A stretch of DNA of 64,000 nucleotides, from sequence record PP889479.1. One strand, given 5' to 3'. Each line of letters starts with the position of its first letter. Positions within the stretch are counted from its first letter, which is position 1. The translations under genes and the position numbers were made by a program. The notes beneath the pieces were generated by a model. The model searched no databases. It was not told the DNA's origin and saw only the letters and a list, made by a program, of their open reading frames with translations. Shown here piece after piece: positions 10,505 through 13,336 of the stretch. Source of the DNA: Klebsiella phage phi1_146029.

Positions 10505-11167
10505 ATGTCTTATACGATCAAAGGTCTGTTGAAAAGACCTGTCCATTTGTTCCATAAACCGCCTGCCGTTGTCGGGGAATATCCGGCAAGAGGAGAGCTT
10601 TATTATGTCAAAGGCTCCAACGGTAGTGGCAAGTCTACCGTTCCGTCCTGGATGGCGGAGAATGATCCTCAGGCGTATGTCGTGACCCATAATGGTAAGG
10701 TGATGCTGACCGTTTGCCCATCATTTAATATCATCTGTGTCGGCAAATATGACAAATCTAAATCTAAAGGGGTTGACTCTCTAAAAGACACAGAGCAGAT
10801 GCTATTCGCCGTGTCTATCACCGAGCAACCTGAATACATCGGGTATGATGTGATCTTTGAAGGTATTATCCCTGCTACCTTGCTCAATACGTGGATTGAA
10901 CGTCTAAACCGCCCGACCCGCCGCCTTGTGGTTCTGTTCTTGGATACCCCCAAGGAAGTATGCCTGGCGCGTGTGAGTTCTCGCAATGGGGGTGAAGACT
11001 TCAAACACGAACTCGTCCTGGAGAAATGGAAGCGCGTCAACTCTCACCGAGAGCGGCATAAAGAGTTGTTCCCTAACATTCCTGCGGGTATGATGAAGTC
11101 TAATGGTCTGACCGTTGATCAGGCCGTATCTGCGTTTCTCAATCGTGATTTTGGGAGTATTGATTGA
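10505..11167 (+). CDS. P-loop kinase (Walker A GSNGSGKST); candidate nucleotide or DNA-modification kinase
   Basis: YYVKGSNGSGKSTVPSWM Walker A motif. Start at Met40 (10505), downstream of the terminator. Stop overlaps the start of the hydroxymethylase (tgATGg). Confidence 0.55.
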   Translation: MSYTIKGLLKRPVHLFHKPPAVVGEYPARGELYYVKGSNGSGKSTVPSWMAENDPQAYVVTHNGKVMLTVCPSFNIICVGKYDKSKSKGVDSLKDTEQMLFAVSITEQPEYIGYDVIFEGIIPATLLNTWIERLNRPTRRLVVLFLDTPKEVCLARVSSRNGGEDFKHELVLEKWKRVNSHRERHKELFPNIPAGMMKSNGLTVDQAVSAFLNRDFGSID

Positions 11168-12222
11168 TGGAAATTTTTGCTTTAAACAACAACGACATGC
11201 TGAAGAAAGCTGTCCTGGCTATCCGTGAACATGGGATTGAGTCTGATCCCGGTAATGCGGAGATTAATACTGATGGCACCCGGTTTCTTGATGGCGTGAC
11301 CATAACCGTCTCGGACATCCGTGACCGCTGGCTTTCCGTTGAAGGTCGCAATTCTTCTGCGCTGGCTGCTATTGGCGAGACCTTCTGGGTTCTGTCAGGC
11401 CGCAATGACATCCGTTTCCTTTCCCGAGTACTCCCCCGCGCGGCCAACTTCTCTGACGATGGCGTAACCTGGCGCGGCGCGTATGGCCCACGCCTGTACA
11501 ATCACGGGCAGCTGGATAGCGTTATCAACCGTCTGCGCAAGAATCCAAATACCCGCCAGGCTTATCTGACAATCTACGACCCGGCGCTGGACTCTGATGA
11601 AGGTTTGGCCGCTCATAATGAAACAGGCGAAGCCAAGACCAAGGACATGATCTGTAATTTGGCTCTTTTGTTCTCTATTACAAACGGCTGTCTGAACATG
11701 ACTGTCATCAACCGTAGCCAGGATGTTCTTTGGGGAATGTCTTCGATTAACTTCATTGAATTCTCTATTCTTCAAGAAGTGATCGCTAATGTTTTGGGCG
11801 TGAACGTCGGCCAGTACAAGTTGTTCTCCAACAATCTTCATTATTACAACAATGAAGTAAGCCAAAAACAGCTGAGTAAAATCACGGCGGATACCGTCGT
11901 GGTGGAAGAAGGAATGTTCAAAGACAAGATTATTTTCAATAATGAAATTGTTGAAGAGCAGAACGGAATCCTGTATATGTTCCGTGACGTGTTGGAAGCG
12001 TGTGAAAGCGGGTTATCCTGGCCTTCTGTATTGGGGATGTTGGAACGCTATGGCGCGGACAGAGGGTTGTTGATGCAAATGGCGTATTGTTTGTGGTGCC
12101 GTTTGAACGGTGTTCTTATCAACCATATGTATATTGCTGATGATGGGTTACTGAATGCTCTCCGCCATTCTCCTGTTGATCGCAAATATATGAATCCTCG
12201 TTCTTTGGGTGGTGACAAATGA
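11167..12222 (+). CDS. ThyA-family deoxypyrimidine nucleotide hydroxymethylase (dCMP/dUMP hydroxymethylase-like; substrate not resolvable from sequence)
   Basis: ETFWVLSGRNDIRFL...GVTWRGAYGPRLYNHGQLDSVINRLRKNPNTRQAYLTIYDP...DMICNLALLF...NRSQDVLWG matches thymidylate synthase / T4 gp42 hydroxymethylase core motifs (catalytic Cys, NxxxxD). At 352 aa it is longer than ThyA. Confidence 0.75.
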   Translation: MEIFALNNNDMLKKAVLAIREHGIESDPGNAEINTDGTRFLDGVTITVSDIRDRWLSVEGRNSSALAAIGETFWVLSGRNDIRFLSRVLPRAANFSDDGVTWRGAYGPRLYNHGQLDSVINRLRKNPNTRQAYLTIYDPALDSDEGLAAHNETGEAKTKDMICNLALLFSITNGCLNMTVINRSQDVLWGMSSINFIEFSILQEVIANVLGVNVGQYKLFSNNLHYYNNEVSQKQLSKITADTVVVEEGMFKDKIIFNNEIVEEQNGILYMFRDVLEACESGLSWPSVLGMLERYGADRGLLMQMAYCLWCRLNGVLINHMYIADDGLLNALRHSPVDRKYMNPRSLGGDK

Positions 12223-12785
12223 TGTATCCTAATCTGGAATTCTTCACGGGGCGCAAGCGCTCCGGTAAGGACTTCTGCCTGGAGTCCATTATTGAAGCAG
12301 ACCGGGGTATCCGTGTCGTTCATCGTCTTTCTTTCTCTGATGAGTTACGCCGGGTGGCCAATTACATTTACCCTTGGCTCCCGGTTGACGTAGACGATTC
12401 CATCAAGGATCTGCCGTTCTCACATCCGGATAACGTACATAACCTGTCGCCAAGGCAGATCTGGCTCCATCTGGGCAACGATAAGGGTGGTTTGCGCTAT
12501 GTACAACCCGATCTGTTCCTGGCGTTCTTTAAACGCTTCCAGTTGCCTCTCGTGGAGGCTAATCCTGGTGTGCACTATATTGTGAGCGACCTGCGTACTC
12601 CGCAGGAATATAATTGGGCACTGAGTACTAAATGTCCCATCACGCGCATTTCAAAGCCCAATCGTTCTGGTATAGTAGAGGATGACGTTGAGGCCTATAT
12701 CGACCAAATGGTTGTTGATTATGATTATGTCAACAACTTTGAAGGCCGTAACAATTTTGTTGAATTCTACAGGAACAGAAAATGA
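12219..12785 (+). CDS. 1: Deoxynucleoside monophosphate kinase (T4 gp1-like)
   Basis: TGRKRSGKDF resembles the T4 gp1 Walker A (SGVKRSGKDT). Placed immediately after the hydroxymethylase, as expected for phosphorylating a modified dNMP. Confidence 0.65.
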   Translation: MMYPNLEFFTGRKRSGKDFCLESIIEADRGIRVVHRLSFSDELRRVANYIYPWLPVDVDDSIKDLPFSHPDNVHNLSPRQIWLHLGNDKGGLRYVQPDLFLAFFKRFQLPLVEANPGVHYIVSDLRTPQEYNWALSTKCPITRISKPNRSGIVEDDVEAYIDQMVVDYDYVNNFEGRNNFVEFYRNRK

Positions 12786-13336
12786 TAACAGCAGATCATA
12801 TTAAAAGTCTGCTCGAACTCCAAAAGGCCACTAACGTGGCCTACTTTGGGGAAGAGTGGAAAAACGTATGGAGCCAAAACGCAGTCGTCAATTCTATTTA
12901 TCGTGAATGGGCAGAATTCCTCGATGAAACGACTGCTGATTGGAAGGTTTACGGTAATGATATCGGGTTTCACCATACGAACGCAGTTTATGAACTGGTC
13001 GACGTGGTTCATTTCATGTTGTGCTTCGTTCTATTGGACCGCACCAAAGGCGAGATCGAAGAAGAATTTGAAATTCTTGATAGCCGCGAATTCACTCCAT
13101 TTGCTTTGGGTGCTGTTGGACATCGAGGTGTGACGTACCGCCTTGGGCAGTTCATGGATGACCCTTGTGTTGAGACTCTCATGTTTTTCCTGTCGTCTGC
13201 GTGTTCTTATATGGAGATCGACATTGAGACCTACATGCTGGCGCACAAACGCAAAAATGATCGTAATCGGCTGCGCGCTGCGGGCGGCGCTGACTACGAC
13301 AAGTCCACAGAAATCCCTCTGACCCTGGAGTTCTAA
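12782..13336 (+). CDS. All-alpha (MazG-like) dNTP pyrophosphatase, T4 gp56 dCTPase/dUTPase-like
   Basis: REWAEFLDE...DWKVYG...VYELVDVVHFMLCFV resembles gp56 DEFRELL...WKKWKA...FELVDIFHFVLNMF. Confidence 0.55.
   Translation: MITADHIKSLLELQKATNVAYFGEEWKNVWSQNAVVNSIYREWAEFLDETTADWKVYGNDIGFHHTNAVYELVDVVHFMLCFVLLDRTKGEIEEEFEILDSREFTPFALGAVGHRGVTYRLGQFMDDPCVETLMFFLSSACSYMEIDIETYMLAHKRKNDRNRLRAAGGADYDKSTEIPLTLEF

Follow-up and report, generated by a model that had tools for sequence, protein, structure and literature searches.

Introduction

The nearest known system to the gene block described here is that of Salmonella phage ViI, consisting of Vi01_061c to Vi01_058c (orf00067 to orf00063) together with gp160, gp226, gp243 and gp247. 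The ViI 5-NeOmdU pathway has been described by Lee et al. 2018 (PMC5889632) and Lee et al. 2021 (PMC8989533). ViI gp67 has been demonstrated to transfer phosphate to 5-hmdU within DNA (PMC8989533), and gp247 functions as a serine:DNA transferase (PMC8989533). In ViI-like phages, the block brings 5-hydroxymethyl-uracil into DNA and carries out the first conversion towards the hypermodified 5-NeOmdU. Klebsiella phage 0507-KN2-1 is among the ViI-like phages encoding 5-HMUDK (PMC5889632). Measured carriers of 5-NeOmdU are ViI, CBA120 and the Taipeivirus phiHS2; in phiHS2, the modified base was found by HPLC-MS at 16.4% of dT (bioRxiv 10.64898/2026.05.19.726188). No 3H-thymidine is incorporated by CBA120, whose thymidylate-synthase-like protein falls in one cluster with the enzymes of hmU phages (PMC3184105). 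SPO1 ends at hmU, and M6 proceeds to 5-NedU via a radical SAM step (PMC8989533).

We analyzed a 64,000-nucleotide stretch (the window) of Klebsiella phage phi1_146029 (PP889479.1). The block at 10505-13336 is very probably a ViI-type thymidine-replacement module of a Taipeivirus Klebsiella phage. It is real but not new, as this gene block has already been described in ViI-like (Ackermannviridae) phages.

Results and Discussion

Source phage and gene layout

The source phage shares 98.4% DNA identity with Klebsiella phage cp18 and 96.7% with 0507-KN2-1 (over 3.5 kb). Within the block, DNA identity to the Klebsiella Taipeivirus phages 0507-KN2-1, cp18, Bestiario, Menlow and Trex_ER12 is 93-98%. 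By sequence, the source is a Klebsiella phage of the Ackermannviridae, genus Taipeivirus.

The original prediction of a four-gene operon was confirmed: four plus-strand ORFs are found at 10505-11167 (220 aa), 11167-12222 (351 aa), 12219-12785 (188 aa) and 12782-13336 (184 aa), and HMMs reproduced all four family assignments. The second gene had been placed correctly but given 352 aa; from its ATG it encodes 351, and 352 is reached by counting the stop codon or an in-frame TTG (11164). ATGA overlaps had been expected throughout. As read from the sequence, the hydroxymethylase/dNMP kinase and dNMP kinase/pyrophosphatase junctions are both ATGA with a 4-nt overlap, but the kinase/hydroxymethylase junction is an equally tight TGATG with a 1-nt overlap. 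The coupling runs beyond 13336, where the block had been taken to end: the stop codon of the pyrophosphatase gene and the start codon of the following gene overlap there (TAATG, 13336). This following gene, on the plus strand, codes for an ACT-like protein (13336-13854; PF24021, E=3.2e-80); it belongs to the coupled series and overlaps uvsX by 16 nt (13839-13854). A Shine-Dalgarno-like G-rich motif lies 6-10 nt 5' of each start. The overlap series of 1, 4, 4, 1 and 16 nt recurs at the orthologous junctions in ViI although the proteins are only 43-80% identical, which argues that the arrangement is not due to chance.

The ACT-like protein has matches in 275 phage records with hosts typical of Ackermannviridae. 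In 29 annotated rows sampled (clear match, E<=7e-32), its gene adjoins a uvsX/recA-type gene and usually also the pyrophosphatase gene. It is 43% identical to ViI orf00062, and a search of solved structures found no relative.

Between the upstream gene, which ends at 10430, and the kinase start, a terminator scan found a plus-strand terminator-like hairpin (10458-10486) whose 13-bp stem leads into a T-run. Its RNA fold has -31.5 kcal/mol (z = -5.5), and none of 200 shuffles was equally stable. An extended -10 consensus, TGcTATAAT (10466-10474), falls within the loop and stem of the hairpin and may serve as a promoter element. ViI has a near-identical hairpin sequence at the same place.

The 5-hmdU DNA kinase

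The first gene (10505-11167, plus strand) encodes a putative 5-hydroxymethyl-dU DNA kinase (5-HMUDK, HMUD1 type) orthologous to ViI gp67. The protein, with the P-loop GSNGSGKST, matches PF18748 over the full length of the model (1-196 of 196, E=8.1e-106, 352 bits). It is syntenic with, and over 220 aa 79.5% identical to, ViI gp67 (Vi01_061c = YP_004327432), and is 99.5-100% identical in Klebsiella Taipeivirus relatives. No relative was found in a sequence search of solved structures. The PF18748 match and the identity to gp67 bear out the earlier suggestion that the extra kinase may be a 5-hmdU DNA kinase. Whether it targets nucleotides or DNA had been held undecidable from sequence; we find it decidable and assign the kinase to DNA, post-replication.

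Could this 220-aa P-loop protein instead phosphorylate nucleotides, such as thymidylate or hm-dUMP, or be a small terminase subunit? Nucleotide-kinase families (dTMP kinase, dNK) do match it weakly (E 0.005-0.07), but they reach 13-22 bits against the 352 bits of PF18748, and a gp1-type dNMP kinase is already present in the same operon. The small-terminase label comes from phrog_800, which carries that label and matches the kinase at E=1.9e-64, and is repeated in RefSeq and pharokka-style annotations; the true small terminase, however, is a separate gene beside the large terminase (ViI Vi01_162c, Bestiario CDS0192). In addition, the ViI orthologue was purified and phosphorylated 5-hmdU in DNA. 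We thus regard a nucleotide kinase or terminase subunit as very unlikely and a 5-hmdU DNA kinase as the preferred assignment. Deposited annotations carry either 'terminase small subunit' or 'hypothetical protein' for this gene.

The dUMP hydroxymethylase

The second gene (11167-12222, plus strand) was assigned to the dUMP hydroxymethylases of the ThyA superfamily by clade, active-site residues and predicted fold. The protein contains the catalytic Cys163, the uracil-reading Asn195 and a C-terminal helical domain at about residues 265-347. Asn195 aligns to E. coli ThyA N177 and T4 gp42 D179, and Asn195, C163, R183, S184, D186, H225 and Y227 are invariant across 32 homologues. BLASTP gave 147 bits with the M6-like (ZC01) dUMP hydroxymethylase, 117 with the SPO1-type enzyme and 52 with E. 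coli ThyA, and no hit with T4 gp42. The protein scores 204 bits with phrog_5131, the family that SPO1-type and M6-like enzymes match best, and 95 bits with phrog_160, which ThyA and gp42 match best. An AlphaFold2 model (pLDDT 93) has CMP hydroxymethylase MilA as its best structural match (about 357 columns, TMq 0.74, TMt 0.81); thymidylate synthases align over about 235-315 columns with TMq 0.48-0.56. Comparison by sequence likewise puts MilA (PDB 5B6D, 5JNH) first among solved structures (E=3e-18). The enzyme was expected to be longer than gp42 or ThyA, and it is, but the length is normal for its class, the SPO1-type and M6-type dUMP hydroxymethylases having 383 and 348 aa, and the helical domain is common to MilA.

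Under one alternative, the gene would encode an ordinary thymidylate synthase, and the block, with a dTMP kinase and a dUTPase beside it, would serve dTTP supply in a phage with canonical DNA. The protein retains the core catalytic Cys, Arg, Ser, Asp, His and Tyr, Pfam Thymidylat_synt matches above its cut-off (56.9 vs 24.3 bits), and most deposited genomes call the gene thymidylate synthase. However, the protein falls far under every NCBIfam thymidylate-synthase equivalog cut-off (58.6 bits with the best model vs 327), reaches two- to threefold higher scores with known dUMP hydroxymethylases, and finds its full-length fold match in a hydroxymethylase. It lacks equivalents of ThyA W80 and of H147, in whose place the dUMP-hydroxymethylase clade carries Asn. 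Its gene shares translational coupling with that of a kinase for which no substrate other than 5-hmdU in DNA is known, and the relatives, which fail to incorporate 3H-thymidine, contain 5-NeOmdU. We consider an ordinary thymidylate synthase highly improbable. The HMM and structure comparisons proposed with the original prediction thus place the enzyme with the SPO1/M6-type dUMP hydroxymethylases, and neither with T4 gp42 nor with ordinary thymidylate synthases. That it hydroxymethylates rather than transfers a methyl group is probable, though not certain, from clade, fold and context.

The parallel of the gene set with T4 gp42, gp1 and gp56, with common PHROG families for two of the three, raises the alternative of a dCMP hydroxymethylase making hm-dC, with the pyrophosphatase as dCTPase and the kinase acting on hm-dCMP. 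The best solved relative by both sequence and fold, MilA, is itself a cytosine-nucleotide hydroxymethylase; in the HMMER alignment, however, an Asp of MilA precedes the Asn of the query by one residue. The base-discriminating Asn195 is of the uracil type and invariant in the clade, where T4 gp42 has Asp179, and gp42 is not hit by BLASTP. Moreover, a phage-encoded dCMP deaminase feeds dUMP, the window holds a complete 5-hmdU-specific downstream set (two 5-hmdU DNA kinases, a serine:DNA transferase and a decarboxylase), and CBA120 was reported to be without hm-dC in place of cytosine. We give a cytosine enzyme even less credence than a thymidylate synthase. The choice between hm-dC and hm-dU had also been held undecidable; Asn195, clade membership and context assign the base as hm-dU. 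With a 5-hmdU DNA kinase at 10505-11167 and an enzyme among the dUMP hydroxymethylases at 11167-12222, the modified base is taken to be hm-dU, and the extra kinase to act on DNA after replication and not on nucleotides.

The dNMP kinase and the pyrophosphatase

The third gene (12219-12785, plus strand) encodes a T4 gp1-type dNMP kinase with the P-loop GRKRSGKD. Its match to phrog_139 (E=2.9e-44), to which T4 gp1 itself is assigned at 1.8e-65, bears out the gp1-like prediction. The two proteins have the motifs KRSGKD and IV-D-R in common and are linked only at profile level, the pairwise match being weak (E=0.005). The kinase is 74.2% identical to ViI dnk; searching solved structures by sequence gave no relative. 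Its substrate range probably includes 5-hm-dUMP.

The fourth gene (12782-13336, plus strand) encodes an all-alpha NTP pyrophosphohydrolase of the dimeric dUTPase/T4 gp56 type (PF08761, E=5.4e-7, 30.5 bits, cut-off 22.9). The predicted likeness to gp56 held, both proteins belonging to phrog_173 (E=8.9e-41 here and 5.8e-39 for gp56); again the link is at profile level only, with a weak pairwise match (E=0.009 over 24 aa). The best solved relative is Campylobacter dimeric dUTPase 1W2Y (E=0.0026), and identity to the ViI counterpart is 62.4%. The sequence supports a dimeric-dUTPase-type enzyme and nothing narrower; the protein is presumably a dUTPase and possibly also a dTTPase. Destruction of the competing canonical dNTP, which formed part of the original prediction and would here concern dTTP, is a putative role that had already been proposed for phage CBA120 in 2011 (PMC3184105).

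Other pathway genes and the proposed pathway

Further candidate genes lie on the minus strand of the window. A putative dCMP deaminase (28292-28804; PF00383, E=1e-16), so labelled in the annotation of phage Bestiario, could supply dUMP to the hydroxymethylase. The ViI gp247 orthologue, a predicted amino acid (serine):DNA transferase (50623-51846; PF18724, E=3.9e-59), is 86.9% identical over 411 aa. A second 5-hmdU DNA kinase of HMUD2 type (52433-53317; PF18747, E=1.2e-138) is 71.6% identical to ViI gp243. Between it and a DNA polymerase ORF (54815-57994) lies an NT5C-like 5'(3')-deoxyribonucleotidase (53627-54418; PF06941, E=1.9e-8; phrog_2643 5'-3' deoxyribonucleotidase, 3e-6), a candidate dTMPase of the hmU pathway. 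The PLP-dependent decarboxylase orthologous to ViI gp226 (60549-61919; phrog_3650, 3.5e-232; weak PALP match) is 87.4% identical over 396 aa; its start codon is uncertain, the ORF being open to 61919 and ViI homology beginning at 61739. The position of gp160 is outside the window. Its orthologue is present in cp18, the nearest relative, and 43 Klebsiella phage records match it, the same number as match the kinase; the source genome probably has it too.

Family membership, orthology, synteny with ViI, active-site residues and fold were computed here; for the identity of the base and for what the kinase, the transferase and the decarboxylase do, we draw on published experiments with orthologues, and we infer the substrate ranges of the dNMP kinase, pyrophosphatase and nucleotidase. 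Before replication, dUMP would be supplied by the dCMP deaminase and by the pyrophosphatase as dUTPase. The ThyA-like enzyme would convert it to 5-hm-dUMP with methylene-tetrahydrofolate and water, the gp1-type kinase would produce 5-hm-dUDP, and host NDP kinase 5-hm-dUTP, which the phage polymerase would use instead of dTTP. The pyrophosphatase, the NT5C-like nucleotidase or both would probably exclude dTTP. [quoted passage not shown] Such DNA would resist many restriction endonucleases. 5-NeOmdU is the predicted end product because the window has the gp243, gp247 and gp226 orthologues, the dCMP deaminase and the NT5C-like nucleotidase. The predicted operon for a further-modified hydroxymethyl pyrimidine is thus upheld through its ThyA-family hydroxymethylase, gp1-type kinase and gp56-type pyrophosphatase.

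Comparison with known systems

Gene order, strand logic, overlap lengths and the upstream hairpin are kept between ViI and the present phage. The four genes are, in order, 79.5%, 77.8%, 74.2% and 62.4% identical, and gp243, gp247 and gp226 72-87%. Unlike ViI, a Kuttervirus, the present phage belongs to Taipeivirus and has a Klebsiella host. The pyrophosphatase (62%) and the ACT-like protein (43%) are the most diverged, with no sign of different chemistry. Compared with Klebsiella phages 0507-KN2-1, cp18, Bestiario, Menlow and Trex_ER12 and coliphage phiHS2 (Taipeivirus), there is essentially no difference.

The pre-replicative logic (dUMP hydroxymethylase, dNMP kinase, dUTPase/dTTPase) is that of Bacillus SPO1-type hmU and Pseudomonas M6-like phages. 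The catalytic domain of the hydroxymethylase is 35-36% identical to theirs and has the Asn and the Cys-Asn dipeptide in common with them. Their enzymes also have long C-terminal extensions, but no homology to the C-terminal domain is detectable in sequence, the phrog_5131 match ending at residue 242. MilA, from mildiomycin biosynthesis, is the only solved relative that also covers the C-terminal helical domain; unlike the phage protein, it serves bacterial secondary metabolism and takes a cytosine ribonucleotide as substrate, and it has only 22% identity and a different base-reading residue.

With T4, the three-enzyme strategy (gp42, gp1, gp56) is common, as originally predicted, but hm-dC as the base is not: uracil rather than cytosine is the apparent substrate (Asn195 vs Asp179). 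The position is also similar, the order here being hydroxymethylase, dnk, pyrophosphatase, ACT-like gene, uvsX, small ORF and gp41-like helicase, and in T4 gene 42, b-gt, segA, uvsX, 40 and 41. The later modification here would be phosphorylation, serine transfer and decarboxylation, whereas in T4 it is glucosylation.

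Results

Organization of the gene block

The block at 10505-13336 on the plus strand is a member of the thymidine hypermodification system typified by Salmonella phage ViI, in which hm-dU is made first and then hypermodified within DNA to 5-(2-aminoethoxy)methyl-dU (5-NeOmdU). The ORF listing contained four plus-strand genes exactly where the original prediction had placed them. Gene 1 (10505-11167) encodes a kinase of 220 aa, gene 2 (11167-12222) a hydroxymethylase of 351 aa counted from its ATG, gene 3 (12219-12785) a dNMP kinase of 188 aa, and gene 4 (12782-13336) a pyrophosphatase of 184 aa. 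The genes had been described as joined throughout by ATGA overlaps, which holds for the gene 2/3 and gene 3/4 junctions; the gene 1/2 junction is TGATG, with a 1-nt overlap. The operon had also been closed at 13336, and the coupled string runs on from there into a fifth gene (13336-13854). This gene starts on the final base of the pyrophosphatase stop codon (TAATG) and in turn overlaps uvsX (13839-14924) by 16 nt. In ViI the orthologous genes overlap by identical lengths of 1, 4, 4, 1, and 16 nt, while the proteins of the coupled string are only 43-80% identical to their ViI orthologues. The overlaps are therefore conserved and not accidental.

Between the upstream gene (which ends at 10430) and the kinase start, 10458-10486 forms a strong hairpin with a T-run after it. 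This hairpin is near-identical in ViI, in spite of the divergence of the flanking proteins. Reading by eye, we noticed within its stem and loop the sequence TGcTATAAT (10466-10474), a perfect match to the extended -10 consensus TGnTATAAT. Judged from its sequence, the hairpin may serve the operon as both terminator and promoter. A sigma-70 promoter scan of 9000-17500 called no site upstream of 10505; it was uninformative, because the 17 sites called in the region compare with 13.1 +/- 3.5 in shuffled sequences. An Rfam search of the whole window at the gathering threshold found no match inside the block. The sole Rfam matches were four tRNA genes (RF00005) at 62949-63797 on the minus strand, which correspond to the annotated tRNA region of phage vB_KpnM-Bestiario. 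Neither Bestiario nor ViI has an annotation for any of the antisense ORFs within the block (up to 156 aa), which were taken as chance ORFs.

The block and its flanks are 98.4% identical in DNA to Klebsiella phage cp18, 98.3% to Bestiario, and 96.7% to 0507-KN2-1. Matches were found in 272 phage records, with hosts nearly all typical of Ackermannviridae. Bestiario is classified in the genus Taipeivirus of this family. One stretch of the window, 29952-31240, did not align to Bestiario by megablast and may thus be an insertion or a replacement; the two ORFs inside it (29949-30542 and 30511-30972) have no Pfam match.

Gene 2 is a probable dUMP hydroxymethylase

Gene 2 encodes a probable dUMP hydroxymethylase of the ThyA superfamily. 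It scored 56.9 bits against PF00303. In BLASTP comparisons it matched the M6-like (ZC01) dUMP hydroxymethylase with 147 bits, the SPO1-type enzyme with 117 bits, and E. coli ThyA with 52 bits; T4 gp42 gave no match. Gene 2 scored 204 bits with phrog_5131, the top family of the SPO1-type and M6-like enzymes, and 95 bits with phrog_160, the family that ranks first for E. coli ThyA and for T4 gp42 alike. The rival reading, an ordinary thymidylate synthase, failed at least one direct test. Gene 2 lies below all NCBIfam thymidylate-synthase cut-offs, the best model giving 58.6 bits against a cut-off of 327. This is the comparison of clades that the original prediction had asked for: BLASTP, PHROG, and NCBIfam group gene 2 with the enzymes of hmU phages and not with thymidylate synthases or dCMP hydroxymethylases.

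The active site was examined in a six-way alignment. Asn195 of gene 2 is also Asn in the ViI, M6-like, and SPO1-type enzymes; it corresponds to Asn177 of ThyA and to Asp179 of gp42. This position discriminates the base, with Asn reading uracil and Asp reading cytosine. A T4-like hm-dC pathway, which the prediction had kept beside hm-dU, likewise failed at least one direct test. The catalytic C163, the base-reading N195, and the phosphate- and base-binding residues R183, S184, D186, H225, and Y227 are invariant in the gene 2 family (32 homologues). W80 and H147 of ThyA are not kept in the gene 2 clade, where Cys-Asn replaces Cys-His.

An AlphaFold2 model of gene 2, built from a 32-sequence alignment, had a pLDDT of 93 and a pTM of 0.92. 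Its top structural match was the CMP hydroxymethylase MilA, over ~357 columns with a TMq of 0.74 and with the C-terminal helical domain included, whereas thymidylate synthases matched over only ~235-315 columns with TMq values of 0.48-0.56. By sequence, too, MilA ranked first among solved relatives (E=3e-18, compared with 2e-8 for the best thymidylate synthase). The extra length of the hydroxymethylase that had been pointed out is real; it is typical of such hydroxymethylases, at 383 aa in the SPO1-type and 348 aa in the M6-like enzyme, and no peculiarity of this phage. Many metagenomic relatives are 470-594 aa long, with just 50-60% of the query aligning, and these probably carry extra fused domains.

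By analogy with the DNA composition of related phages, and from its gene context, the product of gene 2 would be 5-hm-dUMP and not dTMP. Searched by tblastn with four queries (E. coli ThyA, the SPO1-type and ZC01 enzymes, and T4 gp42), the window yielded no second ThyA-like gene. The same conclusion on the hydroxymethylase was published in 2011 for phages CBA120, ViI, and AG3, and CBA120 showed no incorporation of 3H-thymidine (PMC3184105).

Gene 1 belongs to the 5-hmdU DNA kinases

The original prediction left the substrate of the first kinase between nucleotides and DNA. Gene 1 matched PF18748 (HMUD1) with 352.3 bits against a cut-off of 27, over the whole model (1-196 of 196, E=8e-106). The Walker A motif GSNGSGKST can be read in the translation. 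A nucleotide kinase was the rival reading; nucleotide-kinase families scored gene 1 at only 13-22 bits. Gene 1 is 79.5% identical over 220/220 aa to ViI gp67 (Vi01_061c, orf00067, YP_004327432), and both have the same genes as neighbours. ViI gp67 counts among the listed 5-hmdU DNA kinases and was shown to convert 5-hmdU in DNA to 5-phosphomethyl-dU (PMC8989533). Gene 1 also co-occurs with the adjacent dUMP hydroxymethylase gene and with a PF18724 amino acid:DNA transferase gene at 50623-51846. From its sequence family, the gene 1 product is assigned as a DNA-base kinase of the HMUD1 type. A search of solved-structure sequences with this kinase returned nothing usable.

Gene 1 falls in phrog_800, a family labelled "terminase small subunit". 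We rejected this label as wrong, since the gene lies in a nucleotide-metabolism block and its protein is a PF18748 P-loop kinase. The true small terminase gene adjoins the large terminase gene elsewhere in the genome, as seen in ViI and Bestiario. At least one direct test went against gene 1 being a nucleotide kinase or a small terminase. The label is a systematic mis-annotation, present in ViI, M6, Ag3, Bestiario, and many other phages in RefSeq and in pharokka-type annotations. A longer kinase ORF of 259 aa from an ATG at 10388 (CDS0076 of Bestiario, 10427-11206 in that record) was rejected in favor of the 220-aa form. Translation from ATG 10388 would pass across the terminator hairpin, and the ORF would share sequence with the gene before it; the start of the ViI kinase is equivalent to 10505, and the Pfam model begins at residue 14 of the 220-aa form.

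Genes 3 and 4

The third and fourth products had been called gp1-like and gp56-like. These names are valid at the family level only, as one-to-one comparison with the T4 proteins gave marginal similarity. Gene 3 belongs to phrog_139 (2.9e-44), as does T4 gp1 (1.8e-65). Its P-loop GRKRSGKD is the counterpart of GVKRSGKD in gp1, and IVSDLR that of IVPDTR; direct BLASTP gave E=0.005 with short motif matches only. Neither Pfam nor NCBIfam had a family match for gene 3. The search of solved-structure sequences returned nothing usable and did not recover T4 gp1 (1DEK), so the similarity to gp1 was tested at the profile level. By analogy with the rest of the pathway, gene 3 would be specific for 5-hm-dUMP. 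A kinase for the modified dNMP has been described for hmU phages (PMC8989533).

Gene 4 scored 30.5 bits against PF08761 (dUTPase_2; cut-off 22.9) and belongs to phrog_173 (8.9e-41) together with T4 gp56 (5.8e-39). Direct BLASTP with gp56 gave a marginal, short motif match, and the best solved relative was the dimeric dUTPase of Campylobacter (1W2Y, E=0.0026). Conservatively, gene 4 is a putative dUTPase. Hydrolysis of dTTP by the CBA120 pyrophosphatase is a published hypothesis (PMC3184105), and the enzyme of this phage may likewise act on dTTP as well as on dUTP.

Among Ackermannviridae the pyrophosphatase gene exists in two strongly diverged alleles whose distribution cuts across the genera. 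Klebsiella phage Menlow shares the allele found here (100% identity), and Agtrevirus and Limestonevirus phages have close versions of it (90-92%). Identity drops to only ~61% in Klebsiella phages May, T765, and KP6F1 and in most Kuttervirus phages. This pattern suggests gene-sized recombination between genera. The two alleles could differ in dUTP/dTTP specificity; if so, the completeness of thymine replacement would differ too.

The ACT-like gene

The fifth gene, 13336-13854 on the plus strand, is coupled between the pyrophosphatase gene and uvsX and encodes an ACT-like protein (PF24021). Matches to it occur in 275 phage records, and the hosts are those typical of Ackermannviridae. In the annotated records that we sampled it adjoins uvsX and usually the pyrophosphatase gene as well. 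The protein is fast-evolving, with 43% identity to its ViI orthologue as compared to 62-80% for its neighbours, and a search of solved-structure sequences gave nothing usable. We consider it unlikely that this gene is a further, uncharacterised part of the base-replacement system. If it were, the protein could be a ligand-sensing regulator or a scaffold of the nucleotide-synthesis enzymes; alternatively, it might be a factor in the step that returns most 5-hmdU sites to thymine.

Other genes of the 5-NeOmdU pathway

Five of the six ViI-type pathway genes are in the window: those for the dUMP hydroxymethylase, HMUD1, HMUD2, the amino acid:DNA transferase (AADT, gp247), and the PLP decarboxylase (gp226). 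The latter three are on the minus strand. The gp247 orthologue (50623-51846) is 86.9% identical to the ViI protein and matched PF18724 at 3.9e-59; the orthologue of gp243, the second 5-hmdU DNA kinase (52436-53317), is 71.6% identical and matched PF18747 at 1.2e-138; and the gp226 orthologue (60552-61739) is 87.4% identical. The sixth gene, gp160, lies outside the window. Phage cp18 has a gp160 orthologue (73.6%), and gp160 matched 43 Klebsiella phage records, the same number as matched the kinase. The base itself, and the activities of the kinase, the serine transferase, and the decarboxylase, would be as established by experiments on orthologues.

Two more minus-strand genes bear on nucleotide supply. 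One encodes a dCMP deaminase (28292-28804, PF00383) and the other an NT5C-like 5'(3')-deoxyribonucleotidase (53627-54418, PF06941, E=1.9e-8). The latter sits between the genes for the second 5-hmdU DNA kinase and DNA polymerase and is annotated as "hypothetical" in relatives; its product is a candidate dTMPase that would exclude thymidine. A 201-aa "phosphatase" (phrog_335) encoded at 32192-32797 on the minus strand matched the DarG macrodomain model NF048014 with E=1.6e-10, far below the cut-off. The DarG antitoxin is a DNA ADP-ribosyl glycohydrolase. Going by this match, the protein may act in counter-defence against DarT-type ADP-ribosylation of thymidine.

In the published pathway, T is at first fully replaced by 5-hmdU, which later becomes either 5-NeOmdU or T again (PMC8989533). 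Published measurements put 5-NeOmdU at ~40% of T in ViI and CBA120, and in the Taipeivirus phage phiHS2 it amounted to 16.4% of dT by HPLC-MS (bioRxiv 10.64898/2026.05.19.726188). Phage 0507-KN2-1 appears in a 2018 table of ViI-like 5-HMUDK phages (PMC5889632).

Discussion

Family membership, orthology and synteny, active-site pattern, and fold were computed here. Taken together, the three rivals (an ordinary thymidylate synthase, a T4-like hm-dC pathway, and a nucleotide kinase or small terminase as the product of gene 1) are very improbable. The block explains why the DNA of these Klebsiella phages is resistant to many restriction enzymes and awkward to cut and to sequence; these phages are candidates for phage therapy. 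The practical value of the analysis is in annotation: in many deposited genomes the labels "terminase small subunit", given to the DNA-base kinase, and "thymidylate synthase", given to the dUMP hydroxymethylase, mislead.

The T4 hm-dC system has a similar strategy, but gp42 reads the base with Asp and gene 2 with Asn195. With this residue, and with no BLASTP match to gp42, the test of base specificity failed and the block is not a member of the T4 system. The placement of the hydroxymethylase gene relative to uvsX and gene 41 is nevertheless the same in both phage families. The order in T4 is gene 42 (dCMP hydroxymethylase), b-gt, segA, uvsX, 40, and 41; in the window (11167-16665) the hydroxymethylase gene is followed by dnk, pyrophosphatase, ACT-like gene, uvsX, a 109-aa ORF, and a gp41-like helicase gene. 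The block agrees with the ViI-type thymidine hypermodification system in every defining feature that could be tested. The system is already known, because nothing here departs from published work on the family and the genus: the genes, their order, and their activities have been published for the phage family, and the final base has been published for the genus too, by LC-MS.
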